From NCBI GenBank assembly GCA_033764615.1, contig JANRIU010000095.1:2774-66773 (forward strand): DNA of 64,000 nt, written 5' to 3'. The translations under genes were made by a program, and so were the position numbers. The notes below the pieces were generated by a model, which saw nothing but the letters and a program-made list of their open reading frames with translations, had not been told where the DNA came from and ran no database searches. This DNA comes from Gemmatimonadales bacterium. Its GTDB lineage: Bacteria; Gemmatimonadota; Gemmatimonadetes; Gemmatimonadales; GWC2-71-9. Each line of letters starts with the position of its first letter. The stretch's first letter is position 1. Of this stretch, positions 34,121 to 46,525 are shown piece by piece.

Positions 34121-34327
34121 ATGGCGCACATCAACGACTGCATCCCCGGCCGCTCCGCCAAGCTGCTCGCGAGCGGCGTGGCCCGCGTGACGGGCAAGAG
34201 CGGCACCATCGTGGAGGTGGTGCGCACCAAGCGCGGGAGCGATGCGCTGGAGGACCGGGTGACGGTGGACGTGCCCGGGCACGGCGAGATCGTGGTGGGC
34301 CCGGCGGACCTCGAGATCCAGGGCTGA
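34121..34327 (+). CDS. Hypothetical small protein (68 aa), possibly an SH3/KOW-like beta fold
   Basis: ATG preceded by GGAG at -6. The composition is balanced, unlike the Arg-rich shadow ORFs. I recognise no family. Confidence 0.5.
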   Translation: MAHINDCIPGRSAKLLASGVARVTGKSGTIVEVVRTKRGSDALEDRVTVDVPGHGEIVVGPADLEIQG

Positions 34328-38699: not shown

Positions 38700-39398
38700 T
38701 CACCGAATCACCCAGGCGGTGGCGAGCAGCGCGGTGTGTTCGGCGAGGTCGGGCTGGCCCGGCCGAGCGCGCAGCAGCCGGTGTTGGTAGCCCGCCTCCA
38801 GCTGCACGGCGCCGAGGCGCCAGCGCGAGAGGAACTGGAAGCGGTTCTGGTTCCAGCCGTTCCCCTCCAGCGAGATGAACGCCTCCTGGCTCACGACGAG
38901 CGAGAGCGCGCCGCGCAGGGGCACGATCGCCTGCGCCTGCCAGCGCGTGCGCCATTCGCCGACGCCCTCGTCGCCGGCGCGGCGCAGCAGGTCGAGCCGC
39001 GCGCGCCCGGTCAGCGTGACGCGCCCCGCCTGCGCGCGACGCAGGGCGCCGAGCGAGAGGTTCCACTGCGTGGAGCCGCGCGGCTGGTCGAGGAACTGCA
39101 CCTCGGGCTGCAGGAACGTCCCGTTCGCGATCGGCAGGTTGGCGCCGGCGCGCCACACCACGGCCTGGAAGCCGGGCCCGCTCGGCACGGTGCGGAGCTG
39201 CGTGTCGAGCCACGCGCTGCCCGACCAGCGGCGCGGCTGCAGCAGCGCGCCGGTGCGCGACCACGACGCGAGCTCCTGGCGGTCGATGCCGAATTGCGCG
39301 GCGGCGGGACGGACGGCAAGCAGGAGGAGGGGGACGAGCGACCACGGGACCGCCGAGGCGCGCGGGCGAGGGGGAGGGAGCGGATGGGCGCGGCGCAC
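38700..39398 (-). CDS. Hypothetical secreted/outer-membrane protein, DUF2490-like
   Basis: This is the C-terminal 232 aa of the 949-aa fused ORF, with an in-frame GTG start at 39398. It has a signal peptide (WSLVPLLLLAVRPAAAQ). The pattern EAFISLEGNGWNQNRFQF...LEAGYQHR resembles DUF2490 as I recall it. Confidence 0.45.
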   Translation of the reverse strand: MRRAHPLPPPRPRASAVPWSLVPLLLLAVRPAAAQFGIDRQELASWSRTGALLQPRRWSGSAWLDTQLRTVPSGPGFQAVVWRAGANLPIANGTFLQPEVQFLDQPRGSTQWNLSLGALRRAQAGRVTLTGRARLDLLRRAGDEGVGEWRTRWQAQAIVPLRGALSLVVSQEAFISLEGNGWNQNRFQFLSRWRLGAVQLEAGYQHRLLRARPGQPDLAEHTALLATAWVIR

Positions 39399-39479
39399 GC
39401 GTGGAAGATGGCGAGGGGCACGCCGGTGGGCCACCGGCCCGGCAGGGGCACGGCGGGTACGCCGGCGGTAGCGTTCGGC

Positions 39480-40349
39480 ATGGCAGACGACCCGTCCACC
39501 GCCGCCGGGCCCGAGGCGCCGCTCGTCCACCCGCACGCGCTCCGCCGCCTGGGGCGCGCGGCGCCGCTCACGGCGCATCCGGCGATGCGCTGGCGCGACG
39601 GCGAGGCGAGCGCCTGCGAGGAACAGCTCGCCGAGGAGACGCCCGTCACGCTGGTGTACAACGCGGTGCCCCACGTCGTGATGATGCTCACGCCCGCCGA
39701 CCTCGAGGCGTTCGCGCTCGGCTTCAGCTACACGGAGGGGCTCATCACCTCGCCGGACGACGTGCGGGAGGTGACGGTCGTGCCGCACAGCCGCGGCATC
39801 GACGTGAACCTGACGGTGGGCGACGCGGCGTTCGCGATCGTGGAGGGGCGCGCCCGGCGGATGTCCGGGCGCACCGGCTGCGGCGTGTGCGGCACGGACA
39901 ACGTGGACAGCGTGCTGCGGCCGCTCGCGCCGGTCGGGCCGGGGGTGACGGTGCGCGGCAGCGCGATCCATCGCGCGCTGGACGGGCTGGAGGCGCGGCA
40001 GGCGCTCAACGCGGCGGCGCACGCGGTGCATGCGGCGGGCTGGGCCGATCCTTCGGGCGAGCTGCGGCTGGCACGCGAGGACGTGGGCCGGCATAACGCG
40101 CTGGACAAGCTCATCGGCGCGCTGCTGCTGGAGCGGGCCGACCCGCAGGCCGGCTTCCTCGTGATCACGAGCCGCGCGTCGTTCGAGATGGTGCACAAGG
40201 CGGCGTCGTTCGGCACGGGGCTGCTCGCCGCCGTGGGCGGGGCGACGGCGCTTGCGGTGCGGCTCGCGCATGCCTCGCGGCTCACGCTCGCGGGCTTCGT
40301 GCGGCGGGGCGGGCACGTGGTGTACAGCTGGCCGGAGCGGGTGACGTAG
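39480..40349 (+). CDS. fdhD: Formate dehydrogenase accessory sulfurtransferase FdhD
   Basis: ORF trimmed to MADDPST, giving 289 aa. It has conserved FdhD elements (EETPVTLVYN, MLTPADLEAFALGFSYTEG, GRTGCGVCG, EDVGRHNALDKLIG, SRASFEMVHKAA). Confidence 0.9.
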   Translation: MADDPSTAAGPEAPLVHPHALRRLGRAAPLTAHPAMRWRDGEASACEEQLAEETPVTLVYNAVPHVVMMLTPADLEAFALGFSYTEGLITSPDDVREVTVVPHSRGIDVNLTVGDAAFAIVEGRARRMSGRTGCGVCGTDNVDSVLRPLAPVGPGVTVRGSAIHRALDGLEARQALNAAAHAVHAAGWADPSGELRLAREDVGRHNALDKLIGALLLERADPQAGFLVITSRASFEMVHKAASFGTGLLAAVGGATALAVRLAHASRLTLAGFVRRGGHVVYSWPERVT

Positions 40350-40423: not shown

Positions 40424-43400
40424 CTACGTGCTCCCCAGCACCACCGTCCCCTTCCGTTCCAGCACGCCCCAGCCGCGCGCGCGCCCGGCGATCGCCGTCG
40501 CCACCGCCTGCAGCACCGCGAGGTACAGCACCTGCCGGTAGGCGATGCGCTGCGGGATCACGAGCAGGGCCTGCCGCGGGTCCTCGCCGGGCTCGAGCAG
40601 CAGGCCGAGCAGCGCGGCCGCGGCATCCACCACGACGAACACGAGGTACCAGGGCAGCAGCGTCGCGAGCTGGCTCCACGCCGCCGCGCCGCCCTCGGCG
40701 TGCCACGCCCAGCCTGCGCGCCCGAGCGCCACGAGCAGCAGCAGGTCGGCCACGGGGGCGACGAGCGGGAAGAGGAGCTGGAAGAGCCACACGTTCGGCA
40801 GCGCCACCCAGCCGAGCGGGCCGCCGCGCCGCCGCAGGAGCGGCGCGCGGTGCTTCCACGCGCACTGCAGCGTGCCGAACGTCCAGCGGAAGCGCTGGCG
40901 CAGCAGCGAGCGCAGCGTGTCCGGCGCCTCGGTGAGGGCGACCGCCTCCTCCGCGTACGCCACGCGGTACCCGGCCCGGAGCAGCGTCATCGTCAGGTCC
41001 TGGTCCTCGGCGAGCGTGGCGCCGCTGAAGCCGCCGACGACGCGGATCGCCTCGCGGCGCCACGCGCCGATCGCGCCGGGCACGACGGTGATGCAGCCGA
41101 GCTGCGAGAAGGCGCGGCGGTCGAGGTTCTGGCTCGTGACGTACTCGATCGCCTGCCAGCGCGTCACGAGGTTCACGCGGTTGCCGACCTTCGCGTTGCC
41201 CGCCACGGCCCCGACGCGCGGGTCGGCGAGCGGCCGCACGAGCGCGGCGAGCGCGCCCGGGGGGAAGAGCGTGTCGGCATCGACGGCGACGATGAGCTCG
41301 CCCGTGGCGATGGCGACGCCCGCGTTGAGCGCGCTCGCCTTGCCGCCGTTGGCCTGGCGCACGAGCCGGAAGCGCGGGTCGTCGCCGGCCGCGGCGGCGG
41401 CCGCCGCGGCGGTGCCGTCCGGCGAGCCGTCGTCCACCACGATCACCTCGAGGCCGGGCAGCGCCTGGTCGAGCAGCGAGCGCACGGTCCGCGCGATCGT
41501 CTTCTCCTCGCGGAACGCCGGCACCACCACGGAGACCGTCGGCACCCACGCGGCGTCGGCCGCGCGCCGGGCGTAGGGCGCCGCGCGCCGCTGCCGCACC
41601 GCGAGCCCGCCGACCAGCAGGAGCCGGAGCGACCCGAGCACGACGGCGAGCGTGAAGAGCGACGCGAAGACGAGCTCGGTGCCCGAGAGCAGCGAGAAGC
41701 TGGCGAGGTCGAGCCAGCGGCGCACCGCCTGCGCGGGCGGCACGGGCGGCATCGCGCGCGCCGCGGGGATGCCTGCGAGGCCCGAGACCGTCTCGAGCCG
41801 GAGGCCGCGCGCCCGCAGCGAGTCGACGAGCGGGCCGACGGCGGCGAGCGTCGCCGCGCGGTCGCCGCCGCCATCATGCAGCAGGATCACGCGGCCGCGC
41901 GGGAGGTCGTCGAGCGCGCCGCGCACGATCGCCGCGGGCGTCCGGCCGCGCTCCCAGTCGCGCGGGTCGATCTCGAGCGCCGCGGTGAGGTAGCCGAGCT
42001 CGTCGGCGACGCGCATCGGCAGCAGGCGCGACGCGGTGCGCGGCTCCGCGTCGCCGATGTACGGCGGGCGGAAGAGGGTCATCTGGCGGCCGGTGACCGC
42101 CTCGACGAGGCGCTCGGTGGCCGAGAGCTCGAGGCGCACCTGCGCCTCGCCGACGGCGCCGAGGTCGGGGTGGCTGAAGGTGTGGTTGCCGACCTCGTGC
42201 CCCTCGCGCACCATGCGGCGCAGCAGGTCGGGTTGGCGCTGCGCGGCGCGGCCGATGACGAAGAAGGTGGCGCGCGCGTCGTGCGCGGCGAGCGTGTCGA
42301 GGATGGCGCCGGTCCATGCGCCGCCGGGACCGTCGTCGAAGCTGAGGGCGACGGCGTCGGCGGCCCCCGCCGCGCGCTCGACGGCGTAGCCGGTCGGCAG
42401 CGACGTGACGGCGCTGGCCTCGACCCGGCCGTCCGGCGCGAGCGTGACGGTGCGCGCGCCCGGGCGCGCGCTCGACGTGACACGGATCAGCTCCCCGCGG
42501 CCCGCGAGCGCGAGCGCGCCGGTGCTCGGCAGCGCCTCTAGGCCCGTGGCATCGGGCCGCACGCCGTCGCGGCCCAGCACGCGCCAGAGCGTCGGGTCCT
42601 CGGAGCCGAGGCGCCAGAGCGCCGCGCCCGCCGTGCCCGCCGCCTGCGCGAGGCGGAGCTGGTTGTACGCGGTCGTCGCGTCGAGGAACCACGCCGCGTG
42701 CTCGCCATCGGCGGCGGTCCAGCGGAGCACCGGCGTGCGCGACGCCGGGTCGGTCGCGGGCAGGAGGCCGAGGCCGCGGGCGAGCTGCCACGCCTCGGGC
42801 ACGCCGATGTCGCGGCCGCGGCCCGCCGCGCCCGGCGCCCAGTGGTAGCCGTACTGGCCGACGCCCGCGAGCAGCTTCGCCGCGGGGACGCGCGCCGCGA
42901 ACGCCGCGAGCCGTTCCGCGTACCACCCCTCGCCCGCCACCGGCCCCGCATCGTCGAGCCCCGAGTGCTCGTCGTAGAGCATCGGCACCACGTAGTCGAG
43001 CGCCGCGCCGTACGCCTCGAGCGGCCAGTCGGCGAGGTCGACCGGCACGGCCGCGCTCACGACGCTGCCCGCGGGGAGCGCGGCGCGGAGCGCGGCGGCG
43101 AACGCGAGCACCGGCGCGTGCAGCTCGCGCGGGAGGCGCTCGAAGTCGAGCATCACGCCGCCGGCACCCCACGCGCGCGCGCTGTCGGCCACGAGGCGCG
43201 CCGCGGCGTCGCGCACGGCCGCGTCACCGACGAGGCGCGCGACCGCATCGGGGTCGAAGCGACCGCCGGTGAAGTTGGTGAGCATGACGTGCAGCGCGGG
43301 GGCGCCGTCGGTCGCGCGGAGGAGCTCGAGCAGCGCGTCGTCGCGCTCCAGCCGGAGCGGCGGCGCGCCGCGTGCGCCGAGGAAGCCCGTCTCGGCGACG

Positions 43401-43750
43401 ACCCAGTCGAGGCGGTCGGCGTGCTCGCGCACGGTGGCGAGCGCATCCGCGTCCCACGAGACGTAGAAGCCGGCGGTGATCGGGTCGGGGGTGCGGCGGC
43501 CGGCGGGGAGCGGCGGGAGCGGGGCGCGCGGGCCGTCGGCGAGCGCGTCGGGATGGCGTGGCAGCGCGGCGCGCCCGGGCCCGCCCGGGAGCGCGGGGAC
43601 CGGGCGCGGCGGCGGTCGGAGCACGCCCGTGAGCAGCGAGCCGAGCAGCAGCACGACCGCGAGCCCCAGCACGCCGACGGCCGCGCGCACGCGGGGCGCG
43701 CGCCGGCCGGTCGGGTCGTGGAAGACCTGCGGTGCGTGCCCGCCGGTCAC
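40424..43750 (-). CDS. Multidomain exopolysaccharide synthase: TM, GH18-like domain, CE4 polysaccharide deacetylase, family-2 glycosyltransferase (PgaC/NodC-like) with a C-terminal TM bundle
   Basis: This is the C-terminal 1108 aa of the 1414-aa fused ORF. The GTG start at 43750 overlaps the upstream stop (GTGA). The GH18-like TIM-barrel motif is GGVMLDFE. CE4 motifs are SFDDGP, HTFSHP, RPPY and LLHDGG. GT2 motifs are VVVPAFREE, VVDDGSPDGT, AVDADT, AEDQDLT and QRFRW. Confidence 0.85.
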   Translation of the reverse strand: MTGGHAPQVFHDPTGRRAPRVRAAVGVLGLAVVLLLGSLLTGVLRPPPRPVPALPGGPGRAALPRHPDALADGPRAPLPPLPAGRRTPDPITAGFYVSWDADALATVREHADRLDWVVAETGFLGARGAPPLRLERDDALLELLRATDGAPALHVMLTNFTGGRFDPDAVARLVGDAAVRDAAARLVADSARAWGAGGVMLDFERLPRELHAPVLAFAAALRAALPAGSVVSAAVPVDLADWPLEAYGAALDYVVPMLYDEHSGLDDAGPVAGEGWYAERLAAFAARVPAAKLLAGVGQYGYHWAPGAAGRGRDIGVPEAWQLARGLGLLPATDPASRTPVLRWTAADGEHAAWFLDATTAYNQLRLAQAAGTAGAALWRLGSEDPTLWRVLGRDGVRPDATGLEALPSTGALALAGRGELIRVTSSARPGARTVTLAPDGRVEASAVTSLPTGYAVERAAGAADAVALSFDDGPGGAWTGAILDTLAAHDARATFFVIGRAAQRQPDLLRRMVREGHEVGNHTFSHPDLGAVGEAQVRLELSATERLVEAVTGRQMTLFRPPYIGDAEPRTASRLLPMRVADELGYLTAALEIDPRDWERGRTPAAIVRGALDDLPRGRVILLHDGGGDRAATLAAVGPLVDSLRARGLRLETVSGLAGIPAARAMPPVPPAQAVRRWLDLASFSLLSGTELVFASLFTLAVVLGSLRLLLVGGLAVRQRRAAPYARRAADAAWVPTVSVVVPAFREEKTIARTVRSLLDQALPGLEVIVVDDGSPDGTAAAAAAAAGDDPRFRLVRQANGGKASALNAGVAIATGELIVAVDADTLFPPGALAALVRPLADPRVGAVAGNAKVGNRVNLVTRWQAIEYVTSQNLDRRAFSQLGCITVVPGAIGAWRREAIRVVGGFSGATLAEDQDLTMTLLRAGYRVAYAEEAVALTEAPDTLRSLLRQRFRWTFGTLQCAWKHRAPLLRRRGGPLGWVALPNVWLFQLLFPLVAPVADLLLLVALGRAGWAWHAEGGAAAWSQLATLLPWYLVFVVVDAAAALLGLLLEPGEDPRQALLVIPQRIAYRQVLYLAVLQAVATAIAGRARGWGVLERKGTVVLGST

Positions 43751-43950
43751 GTCGCGCGCAGCGCCGTCACCAGCTCCGCCGTCCGGCCGAAGAGGCCGAG
43801 GGCATCGCCCTCCTCCTCGCCCTCGTCGGTGGAGAGCGCCGGCGCGGCGGGAACGGGCTCGAGCTCGCCGCGCGCGTTCGCCTGGAACGTGCGACCGGTG
43901 AACGGGCAGCGGACGATGGAACCGGGTGCGTAGCTGGGCTTGCGGAACAT
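43747..43950 (-). CDS. Hypothetical 67-aa acidic protein translationally coupled to the EPS synthase
   Basis: ATG with a GGAGG RBS about 9 nt upstream. Its stop overlaps the synthase GTG. The sequence is MFRKPSYAPGSIVRCPFTGRTFQ...DEGEEEGDALGLFGRTAELVTALRAT. No TM segment and no family recognised. Confidence 0.55.
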   Translation of the reverse strand: MFRKPSYAPGSIVRCPFTGRTFQANARGELEPVPAAPALSTDEGEEEGDALGLFGRTAELVTALRAT

Positions 43951-43998
43951 GGGGGCGGCCTCCGTGCCGGAGCGGGTCCCCTGATGTTCGGGAACTCC

Positions 43999-44658
43999 TC
44001 ACGATTCCTTGAGCGGCTCGAGGCACCGCGCATCGTCGTGAGTAGGCGCGTTCACGAAGGTGGAGACGGGCCAGGAGGCGAGAGCCGGGGGCTGGGGGCC
44101 TGGGGCCGGAGGCTGGGGGCCGGGGGCGAGCCAGCGGGGCCACTCGGTCTCCTCCACGATCACCGGCATCCGCGCGTGGATGTGGGCCACCGCATCCTGG
44201 GCGTCCATCGTCAGGATGGCGCACGTCTCGAGCGGCGCACCGTCCGGTCCGCGCCACGACTCCCAGAGCGCCCCGAAGGCGAGCACGTCGCCGTCGGCGC
44301 GGGCGATCGCCCACGGCTGCTTCGCCCTCTGCCCCGGCACGACCTGCCACTCGTAGTACGCATCGGCCAGCACGAGGCAGCGCCGCGCCTTCCACGCCGA
44401 GCGGAACGACGGCTTCTCGTGCGCGGTTTCCACCCTCGCGTTGGCCAGCCGGTCGCCGATGGACGGATCCTTCGCCCACGACGGGACGAGCCCCCACCGC
44501 AGCATCGCCACCTCGCGCCCCGCGCCCGCGGCACGCAACACCGCCACGTCGCTGCCGGGCGCGATGTTCCAGCGCGGCACAAGCGGCGGCAGCGCCACCA
44601 CGCCGAGGCGGCGTGCATCGATCTCTCCGGGCTTGCCGAGGGAGTAGCGACCGCACAT
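43999..44658 (-). CDS. SOS response-associated peptidase (SRAP, YedK/HMCES family)
   Basis: ORF trimmed to the invariant MCGRY N-terminus (Met7). It has conserved RWNIAP, MLRWGLVPSWAKD, NARVET, C.VLADAYYEW, TMDA and HARMPVI. Confidence 0.9.
   Translation of the reverse strand: MCGRYSLGKPGEIDARRLGVVALPPLVPRWNIAPGSDVAVLRAAGAGREVAMLRWGLVPSWAKDPSIGDRLANARVETAHEKPSFRSAWKARRCLVLADAYYEWQVVPGQRAKQPWAIARADGDVLAFGALWESWRGPDGAPLETCAILTMDAQDAVAHIHARMPVIVEETEWPRWLAPGPQPPAPGPQPPALASWPVSTFVNAPTHDDARCLEPLKES
44090..44131 (-). repeat. Imperfect 21-bp tandem duplication inside the SRAP gene, encoding PGPQPPA x2
   Basis: ggctgggggcctggggccgga / ggctgggggccgggggcgagc (17/21 identical). Its composition resembles the intergenic G-run tracts at 17240..17290 and 40349..40381. 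Confidence 0.7.
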
Positions 44659-44759
44659 GGGGCGGCAAGATGGCATGCGGGCCGGGGGGCAGGAAGGGTG
44701 GGCCGAACGGGTGACGTGGCGGGTAGGAGTCCCCGCGGGTTCCCGTCTACCGTTCAGGC

Positions 44760-45719
44760 ATGTCGCCCCCGTCCCTCACCGGCCTCCACCACGTGACCGC
44801 CGTCTCGGCGTCGATCCGCGAGAACCTGCGCTTCTACACGCAGGGCCTGGGGCTCCGGCTCGTGAAGCGGTCGGTCAACCAGGATGACGTCTCCGCGTAC
44901 CACCTCTTCTACGCCGACGCGAAGGGGAGCCCGGGGACCGACCTCACCTTCTTCGACTGGCGCGTCCCGCCCGAGCGGCGCGGCACGCGGTCGATCACGC
45001 GCACGATGCTGCGCGTCGCGGGCGCCGCCGCGCTCGACTACTGGACGGCACGCCTTCGCGGGCTCGGCGTGCGCACGGAGCCGGTGACGGAGCGCGACGG
45101 CCGCCTCACGCTCGACTTCGAGGACGCGGAGGGCCAGCGCCTCTCCCTCGTGGACGACGGCGGCGCGGGCGATGCGCATCCGTGGGACCGGAGCCCCGTC
45201 CCCGCCGACCACCAGGTGCGCGGCCTCGGCCCGGTCATGCTCAGCGTCCCCCGGCTCGCGCCGACGGCGCTCGTGCTGGAGGAGCTGCTCGGCATGCGCC
45301 GGGTGCGCACCTATCCGCACCCCGAGGCGGTGCGGCACATCGTGCACGTCTTCGAGATGGGCGCGGGCGGCCCCGCCGCGGAGCTGCACGTCGCCGAGCA
45401 GGCCGACCTGCCGGCCGCGCGCGCCGGCGCGGGCGGCGTGCACCACCTGGCACTCCGGACGACGACGTTCAGCGACTACGAGGCGTGGGCCGACCACCTC
45501 GTGAACGTGGGCATGCCGAACAGCGGCCGAGTGGACCGCTACTGGTTCCGCAGCCTCTACTTCCGCGAGCCCAACGGCATCCTGTTCGAGATCGCGAGTG
45601 ACGGTCCCGGCTTCGCCGTGGACGAGGACGAGGCGACGCTCGGCGAGAAGGTGACGCTCGCGCCGTTCCTCGAGCCGCGCCGCGCGGAGATCGAGGCCGG
45701 CCTCGTGCCGCTCGACTGA
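44760..45719 (+). CDS. Ring-cleaving dioxygenase, glyoxalase/VOC family (MhqO/YfiE-like, two-module)
   Basis: 319-aa ORF. It has GLHHVTAVS...[18 protein letters not shown]...[16 protein letters not shown], and a second module with VHHLA.R, DR.YF.S.YFREP.GILFEIA.D.PGF. Confidence 0.85.
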
Positions 45720-46270: not shown

Positions 46271-46525
46271 ATGCGCGGTGCGATCACCCTCTTCATCTCC
46301 GCCCTCGGCTTCGCGCTCAGCTGGTTCACGGTGCGCGGCGCGGGCGAGACCATCTTCTTCGGCTCCTGGTCCGCGGCGATGACGTCGATCCTCGGCGTGC
46401 TGACGATCGTGACGGCGGTCAGCCTGTACACGATCTCGAAGTTCGTGGACATGGACGACGAGCTCTCGGCGTGGCCTGAAGCCCAGGCGACCGCCGAGGC
46501 CCCGCAGGTCGCGAAGGCCGCGTAA
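46271..46525 (+). CDS. Hypothetical small membrane protein (2 TM)
   Basis: 84-aa ORF with two hydrophobic segments (ITLFISALGFALSWF, MTSILGVLTIVTAVSLY) and an acidic tail. Confidence 0.5.
   Translation: MRGAITLFISALGFALSWFTVRGAGETIFFGSWSAAMTSILGVLTIVTAVSLYTISKFVDMDDELSAWPEAQATAEAPQVAKAA

Follow-up and report, generated by a model that had tools for sequence, protein, structure and literature searches.

MatA and MatB (SCO2963 and SCO2962) carry out the synthesis of poly-N-acetylglucosamine (PNAG) for hyphal aggregation in Streptomyces (PMC4391728, PMC5972031). No domain is recognisable in MatA, a membrane protein gene product whose stop codon overlaps the start codon of matB (PMC4391728). Fusions of a CE4 deacetylase to a GT2 glycosyltransferase are already known, MatB experimentally and those of Gram-negative bacteria bioinformatically; the latter, described as 'PgaB clades fused to GT domains', were reported by Bundalovic-Torma et al. 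(2020) from operons that carry neither pgaA nor pgaD (PMC7112194). Here, we describe an analysis of a 64,000-nucleotide stretch of DNA from a Gemmatimonadales bacterium (assembly GCA_033764615.1, contig JANRIU010000095.1, positions 2,774 to 66,773; hereafter the window). It contains a gene encoding a 1108-residue protein in which a GH18-fold domain, a CE4 domain and a GT2 domain are joined, and a 67-codon open reading frame (ORF), orf67, that abuts the start of this gene. From comparative sequence analysis we consider it likely that the large protein is a self-contained inner-membrane synthase and deacetylase of poly-N-acetylglucosamine (poly-GlcNAc) of the MatAB type.

The synthase gene is uninterrupted, and its product is identical to NCBI protein P0001, a 1108-residue protein from a Gemmatimonadales metagenome-assembled genome:

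40424..43750, minus strand: tri-domain synthase gene, GTG start at 43750, stop codon at 40424-40426

Read mechanically, the minus-strand frame that ends at 40424 contains no stop for 1414 codons and extends 306 codons upstream of the gene (43751-44668, minus strand) across orf67 and a gene of the SRAP family. This 1414-residue ORF is an artefact of high GC content (about 75% in the window), because its upstream third overlaps the SRAP gene in another frame. We place the true start at GTG 43750, nine codons ahead of an FxDPxGRR motif that opens nearly all homologues, because the homologues start 5-13 residues ahead of this motif, because the alternative in-frame starts all lose it, and because NCBI annotates the identical product.

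The predicted order of elements, from the N to the C terminus, is a cytoplasmic motif and first transmembrane (TM) segment, a periplasmic GH18 fold, a CE4/NodB domain, a second TM segment, a processive GT2 domain and a C-terminal TM bundle:

43619..43723, minus strand: residues 10-44, cytoplasmic Arg-rich motif FHDPTGRRAPRVR followed by TM1, the MatA-like module (family-wide motif, hhalign, structural model, hydropathy)
42575..43489, minus strand: residues ~88-392, predicted periplasmic GH18-fold (beta/alpha)8 domain with D202-x-E204 (Pfam, phmmer against PDB, Foldseek)
42371..42511, minus strand: residues ~414-460, beta-strand linker domain between GH18 and CE4 (DSSP strands in the AlphaFold2 model)
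41777..42361, minus strand: residues 464-658, predicted periplasmic CE4/NodB de-N-acetylase with all five motifs (Pfam, NCBIfam, PDB, Foldseek)
41582..41737, minus strand: residues ~672-723, long helix with TM2, predicted to return the chain to the cytoplasm (hydropathy peak at 687-715, model helix at 672-723)
40853..41542, minus strand: residues 737-966, predicted cytoplasmic processive GT2 catalytic domain (Pfam 6e-35, NCBIfam, Foldseek)
40487..40831, minus strand: residues 974-1088, C-terminal TM helix bundle, presumed translocation channel (hydropathy, model)

A first-pass annotation of this DNA had proposed that a processive GT2, a CE4 with its full motif set and a GH18-fold domain reside in one polypeptide; Pfam, phmmer against PDB sequences and Foldseek agree on this, and every motif quoted in that annotation was found, and the key residues of these motifs do not vary among 104 homologues. 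An AlphaFold2 model of the full-length synthase built on these homologues has a predicted local distance difference test score (pLDDT) of 91.3 and a predicted template modelling score (pTM) of 0.81. Hydropathy places TM1 at ~24-44, TM2 at ~687-715 and the C-terminal bundle from ~985 onward, and together with the model it supports the N-terminal TM segment and the TM bundle trailing the GT2 domain that had been proposed. The GH18 and CE4 domains are predicted to be periplasmic and the GT2 domain cytoplasmic, as judged from hydropathy and positive-inside charges with the Arg-rich N terminus inside; processing of a nascent chain by the two periplasmic domains is consistent with this topology. The same topology has been published for MatB (extracellular CE4, TM segment, intracellular GT2; PMC5972031).

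The CE4 and GT2 domains are recognized with high significance. Pfam PF01522 matches residues 464-564 (E 1.4e-33), the NCBIfam NodB model scores 126 bits over the CE4 region, and the closest PDB chains are PdaC and Bc1960 (1e-28; Foldseek template modelling score (TM-score) 0.83), which are also the Foldseek matches to the CE4 part of the model; no PgaB chain was among the best 50 Foldseek matches to the model. All five CE4 motifs are present (SFDDGP 470-475, HTFSH 523-527, RPPY 561-564, DPRDW 595-599 and LLHD 623-626), and their key residues, including H523/H527, R561-P-P563 and L623-L-H-D626, are invariant in the homologues. The Pfam GT2 match covers residues 737-1008 (E about 1e-34). The GT2 motifs DDGS (773-776), DAD (824-826), E915-D-x-D918 and Q952-R-x-R-W956 are likewise present with invariant key residues and are followed by TM helices, so that the motif series of PgaC and IcaA (D, DxD, (T/E)ED, Q(R/Q)xRW) is complete. 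The best NCBIfam model is PgaC_IcaA (TIGR03937), with 175.8 bits over residues 728-975 against an equivalog cut-off of 422.3 bits that is not reached; NodC, with 122 bits against 550, also stays under its cut-off. Foldseek related the GT2 part of the model to hyaluronan synthase, PcManGT and BcsA. The TM bundle is followed by a conserved GWGxLER tail in which W1094, G1095, K1096, L1097 and R1099 are near-invariant. In the window protein this near-invariant tail reads GWGKLERKGTV (residues ~1094-1105, window 40436-40471), which may resemble WGT(R/K), the gating-loop motif known from hyaluronan and chitin synthases.

The relationship to MatB was revealed by a tblastn search of plasmid records. 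A protein annotated as 'bifunctional polysaccharide deacetylase/glycosyltransferase family 2 protein' on plasmid pKVP1 of Streptomyces viridifaciens (Kitasatospora) (locus L087) aligns with residues 469-1103 of the window protein at 43% identity over 640 residues (E 2e-130), a match that spans CE4, TM2, GT2 and the C-terminal bundle. The window protein has what characterizes MatB-type proteins, namely an extracytoplasmic CE4, one TM segment, a cytoplasmic GT2 and end-to-end homology. Directly upstream of the pKVP1 gene lies a gene for a 255-residue hypothetical protein (L087 2891-3658), and corresponding small genes occur, in four independent loci, 15-45 nucleotides upstream of genes for CE4-GT2 proteins of ~720 residues:

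L087 2891-3658, L088 ~2069, L089 4001-4798 and L090 4001-4516: small membrane protein genes upstream of MatB-type genes in Streptomyces and Kitasatospora

All of these small actinomycete proteins are annotated 'hypothetical protein'. When the 255-residue protein was compared with the tri-domain family, the match consisted of the N-terminal motif and TM1 alone (hhalign probability 88%). In 18 relatives of this small protein the motif PVFVDxSGRRxR..R is invariant and precedes a TM helix, with disorder in the rest of the chain, and the alignment of this small-protein family (A3) matches the tri-domain N terminus over residues 4-47 of the window protein (hhalign probability 94%, E 1.4e-7). The corresponding synthase motif, FxDPxGRRxxRxR, which together with TM1 occupies residues 4-44 (window 43619-43741), is conserved family-wide and is modelled with a pLDDT of 88-95, which suggests that the N-terminal residues are packed rather than free.

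Because the first ~47 residues match the core of the small proteins at the MatA position, an accessory element is probably built into the N terminus of the synthase. We read the tri-domain protein as MatB fused to a MatA-like core, with a GH18 domain added. If so, the N-terminal motif would offer a first functional handle on MatA, the length of which we estimate at ~237 residues from a frameshift at Leu165 located 216 bp before matB. The idea that MatA corresponds to the GH18 domain was considered and dropped, since only the N-terminal motif and TM1 matched the small upstream proteins; a tblastn search of plasmids with the GH18 region, aimed at a split GH18 gene beside Streptomyces MatB genes, gave no Streptomyces match.

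The domain that distinguishes the window protein from MatB, GH18, required additional lines of evidence for its assignment. Pfam PF00704 matches residues 162-382 with E 1.3e-5 and 25.5 bits, under the cut-off of 29.6, so that of the domain scan proposed in the first-pass annotation the GT2 and CE4 parts were significant and the GH18 part was rescued by structure-based comparisons. These were phmmer searches against solved structures (5jh8, 1.4e-19; SleL 4s3j, 1.4e-14; also YdhD and YaaH) and Foldseek searches with the model, which matched the N-terminal domain to GH18 structures (SleL, 8e-19; 5jh8, TM-score 0.81; TM-scores ranging over 0.6-0.8). Based on sequence and model together, assignment to GH18 is firm despite the sub-cut-off Pfam score. 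The beta linker that follows (414-460) matched no Pfam family and carries four residues, G419, E420, G431 and R433, that are invariant in the 104 homologues.

As had been noted, the domain does not carry the complete DxxDxDxE motif of GH18 enzymes, and only D202-F-E204 (GGVMLDFE) is retained. The nearest solved GH18 proteins have the same reduced motif in the phmmer alignments (SleL, DIHFDFE; 5jh8, GINVDFE). Five residues, D202, E204, M257, D260 and W379, do not vary across the homologues, and Y259 is conserved in at least 90% of them. The SleL (YaaH) protein of B. anthracis is reported to be an active N-acetylglucosaminidase that cleaves small peptidoglycan fragments (PMC10653849). The conserved residue pattern more likely marks a catalytic site than a binding-only remnant, because the D-x-E is invariant and SleL, with the same reduced motif, is an active glucosaminidase; the earlier suggestion that the domain may bind rather than cleave is disfavoured by these facts and by the invariance of M257, D260 and W379.

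Under the MatAB-type reading, the GT2 domain would polymerise a UDP-sugar, most probably UDP-GlcNAc, and push the growing chain out through the TM bundle at its C terminus. Anchored by TM2, the CE4 domain would partly de-N-acetylate the chain as it emerges into the periplasm. The GH18 domain, anchored by TM1, would most likely hydrolyse a GlcNAc-containing glycan, either in trimming or releasing the product or in opening peptidoglycan locally. As the fused counterpart of the protein at the MatA position, the Arg-rich motif with TM1 would probably fill the accessory or activating role of PgaD, IcaD or MatA.

Several points weigh against this reading. The GT2 domain lies far under the cut-offs of both the PgaC/IcaA model (176 versus 422 bits) and the NodC model (122 versus 550), so its substrate and linkage are only inferred. 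GH18 enzymes cut beta-1,4 GlcNAc linkages, and this specificity fits poorly with a beta-1,6 PNAG product. The small actinomycete proteins probably are the MatA family, an equivalence of position, size and description and not of the SCO2963 sequence. Our literature search found no biochemical data on any tri-domain member. Finally, a real functional link between orf67 and the synthase gene in this lineage is conceivable, given their tight GTGA overlap and the lack of a Shine-Dalgarno (SD) site for the latter.

The affinities of the GH18 and NodB-type CE4 domains point toward beta-1,4 GlcNAc or peptidoglycan as the glycan that is processed, and the MatB homology points toward PNAG. It is rather unlikely, in our estimation, that the product is a beta-1,4 poly-GlcNAc made chitosan-like by the CE4 domain, with GH18 setting the chain length or releasing the chain, and the family one of chitin/chitosan synthases. 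The GH18 fold with its intact D-x-E would suit such a product, and the CE4 domain is nearest to NodB, PgdA, PdaC and chitin deacetylases, with no PgaB or IcaB model among the best 25 NCBIfam matches; Pfam Chitin_synth matches and matches to hyaluronan and chitin synthases add to this, and the published bioinformatic analysis of MatB could not decide between 1,4 and 1,6 linkages (PMC5972031). However, PgaC_IcaA outscores NodC among the NCBIfam models (176 versus 122 bits), and the product of MatB was assigned as PNAG by monoclonal antibody F598, dispersin B and periodate, with calcofluor staining kept in the mutant (PMC5972031). The extended proposal, in which the tri-domain family is a one-protein beta-1,4 chitin/chitosan-type machine whose GH18 domain cuts or releases the chain and whose N-terminal motif serves as a built-in switch like MatA, PgaD or IcaD, is one that we regard as speculative and doubtful. 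Within the MatAB-type reading itself, the choice between a beta-1,6 and a beta-1,4 linkage appears close to even.

The closest solved relatives of both periplasmic domains are peptidoglycan enzymes (SleL, YaaH and YdhD for GH18; PdaC, Bc1960 and PgdA for CE4), and family neighbourhoods hold no outer-membrane or periplasmic export partner. Both observations would fit a mechanism in which GH18 and CE4 act on peptidoglycan, cutting and deacetylating the sacculus so that the GT2 chain can pass or be anchored. We think this improbable, since the CE4 domain acts on the polymer in the MatB, PgaB and IcaB systems (PMC5972031, PMC7112194), and MatB-type proteins work without a GH18 domain.

The 67-residue ORF, its GGAGG site and its GTGA overlap with the synthase gene are as described in the first-pass annotation:

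43747..43950, minus strand: orf67, 67 residues, soluble and mildly acidic orphan; stop TGA at 43749-43747 overlaps the synthase GTG at 43750-43748 (GTGA)
43959..43963, minus strand: GGAGG, SD-like site with an 8-nucleotide spacer to the orf67 ATG (chance expectation ~2%)

That annotation had also called the product soluble and acidic. No hydrophobic segment is present (maximum 19-residue hydropathy 0.57, which indicates no TM segment); the acidity is only mild (isoelectric point 4.9, nine D+E versus seven K+R). A single-sequence AlphaFold2 model has a small three-stranded sheet at residues 12-32 (pLDDT ~85), which an unstructured acidic linker connects to a helix at 51-65.

We think that orf67 is a genuine gene because of its codon-position GC, its codon-usage score and the spacing of its GGAGG site. 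GC at the first, second and third codon positions is.71/.59/.91, compared with.72/.58/.90 in the SRAP gene, and orf67 has the highest codon-usage log-odds among the 92 short ORFs of the window, with positive values for only four of them. Two further short ORFs with positive scores, 34121-34327 (plus strand, 68 residues) and 46271-46525 (plus strand, 84 residues), may also be real small genes. An ORF of this length is in itself unsurprising by chance, as all three minus-strand frames are open there at 78% GC. This openness, together with the lack of homologues and the plain intergenic spacers of 100-430 nucleotides found in relatives, would suit the view that orf67 is not a gene and that the 248 nucleotides between the SRAP and synthase genes are an untranslated leader or promoter region in which the ORF arose by chance. 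We hold this to be quite unlikely, as a third-position GC of 0.91 with 0.59 at the second position is that of real genes, the codon-usage score is the highest among the short ORFs, a GGAGG placed 8 nucleotides from the ATG is expected by chance in ~2% of cases, and residues 4-24 match a repeat motif of real proteins (E 3.5e-10 and 9e-4). Nor was any regulatory element recognized in the spacer: scans of 43500-44900 for sigma-70 promoters and intrinsic terminators found none, and an Rfam scan of 43400-44900 for riboswitches or leaders, such as the cyclic di-GMP riboswitch, gave no match up to E 1.

Taking orf67 as a gene, it is plausible that synthase translation depends on ribosomes that finish orf67, because no SD site precedes the synthase GTG. 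In the mechanism we propose, orf67 would be a lineage-specific small cytoplasmic protein, with synthase translation probably coupled to its termination.

The first-pass annotation had further suggested that orf67 is a subunit that replaces PgaD. PgaD and IcaD are small integral membrane proteins conserved with their synthase, and neither property was found for orf67. It is a singleton in an index of 5.8 billion proteins, and an exhaustive phmmer search of 1.84 billion representatives returned no full-length homologue; apart from orf67 itself, the matches in this library were only long Ser/Thr-kinase proteins and one 383-residue protein. These matches arise from residues 4-24 (window 43879-43941), which constitute one copy of a W/Y-x-PG-x-x-V-R-CP-x-TG-R-x-F-R-L/V-P repeat motif (whole-library E 3.5e-10 and 9e-4; proteins P0122-P0125). 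The motif occurs in ~20 copies in P0122, a Ser/Thr-kinase protein of 2791 residues, and in several copies in the other kinase-linked proteins and in the 383-residue protein; for the repeat, Pfam gave only a faint DUF2093 match, on P0122. A tblastn search of 80 related loci and the window recovered only orf67 itself, a pattern search for PGxxVxCPxTG in the related loci recovered nothing, a scan of metagenome DNA found no relative, and Pfam and NCBIfam scans of orf67 were empty up to E 10. No small ORF abutting the synthase start was recognisable in 40 relatives with a placeable start, and the closest relative (58% identity) has no counterpart. Two 126-residue genes upstream of homologues (L084 and L085) are unrelated to each other and to orf67, and a comparison of orf67 with the MatA-like family likewise showed no relationship (hhalign probability 0.1%).

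The homology and synteny comparison that had been proposed for orf67 therefore speaks against the subunit idea, which fails because the protein is not conserved in relatives; as a singleton with no conserved synteny and, unlike PgaD and IcaD, no TM segment, it does not qualify as a replacement for PgaD. A version in which orf67 serves the synthase specifically, as an accessory or regulatory subunit that docks on the Arg-rich motif or on GT2 through its acidic patch or C-terminal helix, can still draw on the GTGA overlap and the missing synthase SD site, on the strong coding signature and GGAGG site, on the similarly overlapping stop and start codons of matA and matB (PMC4391728), and on the charge complementarity that may exist between the acidic stretch and the Arg-rich N terminus of the family. 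Against it stand the lack of a homologue anywhere, including the 80 related loci; the lack of a positional equivalent in the 40 loci or the closest relative; the occurrence of the synthase as a stand-alone gene in hundreds of species; and the absence of a TM segment and of any relation to the MatA-like family. We regard it as very unlikely. The comparisons do not support orf67 as a conserved subunit; its link to the synthase appears positional and lineage-specific, and the N-terminal motif with TM1 seems the better accessory candidate. As an orphan with no conserved linkage to the synthase, orf67 itself matters little.

The tri-domain family is widely distributed. At E ≤1e-20 a protein search gave 450 matches; among the 120 top-ranked ones, nearly all have the same three Pfam domain types. 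In a genome scan the full-length architecture was present in at least 589 stretches from species-representative genomes, with matches in Gemmatimonadota, Acidobacteriota, Alpha- and Gammaproteobacteria, Actinomycetota, Aneurinibacillus, a cyanobacterium and a bacterium of the candidate phyla radiation; plasmid records add homologues from Sphingobium, Deinococcus, Bacillus mycoides and Prevotella, all annotated simply 'glycosyltransferase'. A literature search for the GH18-CE4-GT2 combination found no study. The architecture is not unusual; it is a widespread but unstudied variant of the MatAB-type synthase. The version with GH18 and the fused N-terminal motif was in none of the papers searched, although hundreds of species carry it, including many abundant soil bacteria.

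No gene neighbourhood is shared by the family, as every locus inspected was different. In the window the neighbours of the synthase gene encode FdhD, a DUF2490 protein, a hybrid histidine kinase, an SRAP protein and glyoxalase-family proteins, and no PgaA, PgaD or IcaD gene lies near it. Because the neighbourhoods vary between loci, the synthase gene is a stand-alone unit with no conserved export or accessory partner. The gene upstream on the same strand is unrelated in function and may be co-transcribed with the synthase region:

43999..44676, minus strand: SRAP/YedK-type gene (Pfam PF02586, E 3.6e-63)

On the other side, FdhD (39384-40349, plus strand) converges on the 3' end of the synthase gene with a gap of 74 nucleotides and stands head to head with the DUF2490 gene (38703-39422, minus strand; outer-membrane-like), the two 5' ends apparently overlapping; both genes are unrelated to polysaccharide synthesis. 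Some homologues, such as P0070 of Gemmatimonas groenlandica (1382 residues) and P0066 (1367 residues), carry an extra PF06057 domain (AcvB/VirJ, lysyl-phosphatidylglycerol hydrolase-like), from which the NCBI name of P0070 is taken. At a locus of Gemmatimonas aurantiaca (L081 9527-12963), the synthase gene is followed by one for a 908-residue LTD-domain protein and then by one for a protein with a faint PEP-CTERM (exosortase-sorting) match; this arrangement is absent from the window and from the other loci inspected.

Compared with known systems, the window protein is closest to MatAB. MatB consists of an extracellular NodB-type CE4, a TM segment and an intracellular PgaC-like GT2 (PMC5972031), and the small protein at the MatA position shares the PVFxDxxGRRxxRxR motif and TM core with the window N terminus. 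Both systems do without a PgaA, PgaD or IcaD homologue, and both have a stop/start overlap with the upstream gene. They differ in that the MatA-like core, CE4 and GT2 are joined in one polypeptide in the window protein, which also has a GH18 domain of ~300 residues and a beta linker between TM1 and CE4, whereas MatAB has no hydrolase. Furthermore, no icaC-like acyltransferase adjoins the window gene, its host is a diderm member of the Gemmatimonadales, and the gene that overlaps its start, orf67, is unrelated to MatA.

The hydrolase domain of PgaB belongs to GH153. In the label 'PgaB/PgaC-like' given in the first-pass annotation, 'PgaB-like' is loose, as the hydrolase family and the domain order differ. 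With PgaBCD of E. coli and IcaADB of staphylococci the window protein shares a processive GT2 with D, DxD, ED and QxxRW motifs and, presumably, de-N-acetylation of the polymer by a CE4 domain. A deacetylase and a glycoside hydrolase domain occur together in PgaB as well (PMC5933820). It lies far under the PgaC and PgaB family cut-offs, however, and the PgaB arrangement of a CE4 domain followed by a C-terminal PgaB-type hydrolase was not found; the hydrolase of PgaB is C-terminal to the deacetylase (PMC7112194, PMC5933820), whereas the window GH18 is N-terminal to CE4. In addition, the window enzymes would be anchored in the inner membrane and not act at the outer membrane, and no PgaA porin, PgaD or IcaD accompanies them. 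The Gram-negative PgaB-GT fusions follow the same logic as the window gene, with deacetylase and glycosyltransferase in one chain and no pgaA or pgaD, but the paper describing them mentions neither GH18 nor the N-terminal motif (PMC7112194). For the GH18 domain, the subgroup of SleL, YaaH and YdhD, N-acetylglucosaminidases of the spore cortex, and the 'probable chitinase' 5jh8 are the best sequence and structure matches and share the D-x-E that lacks the two upstream Asp residues; they differ in being soluble or LysM-anchored stand-alone enzymes, with ~20-26% identity to the window domain. Tethering both a hydrolase and a deacetylase to the synthase would amount to the logic of PgaB with a different hydrolase family, and the GH18 domain raises the testable question of which polymer is made, PNAG or one that is chitin/chitosan-like.

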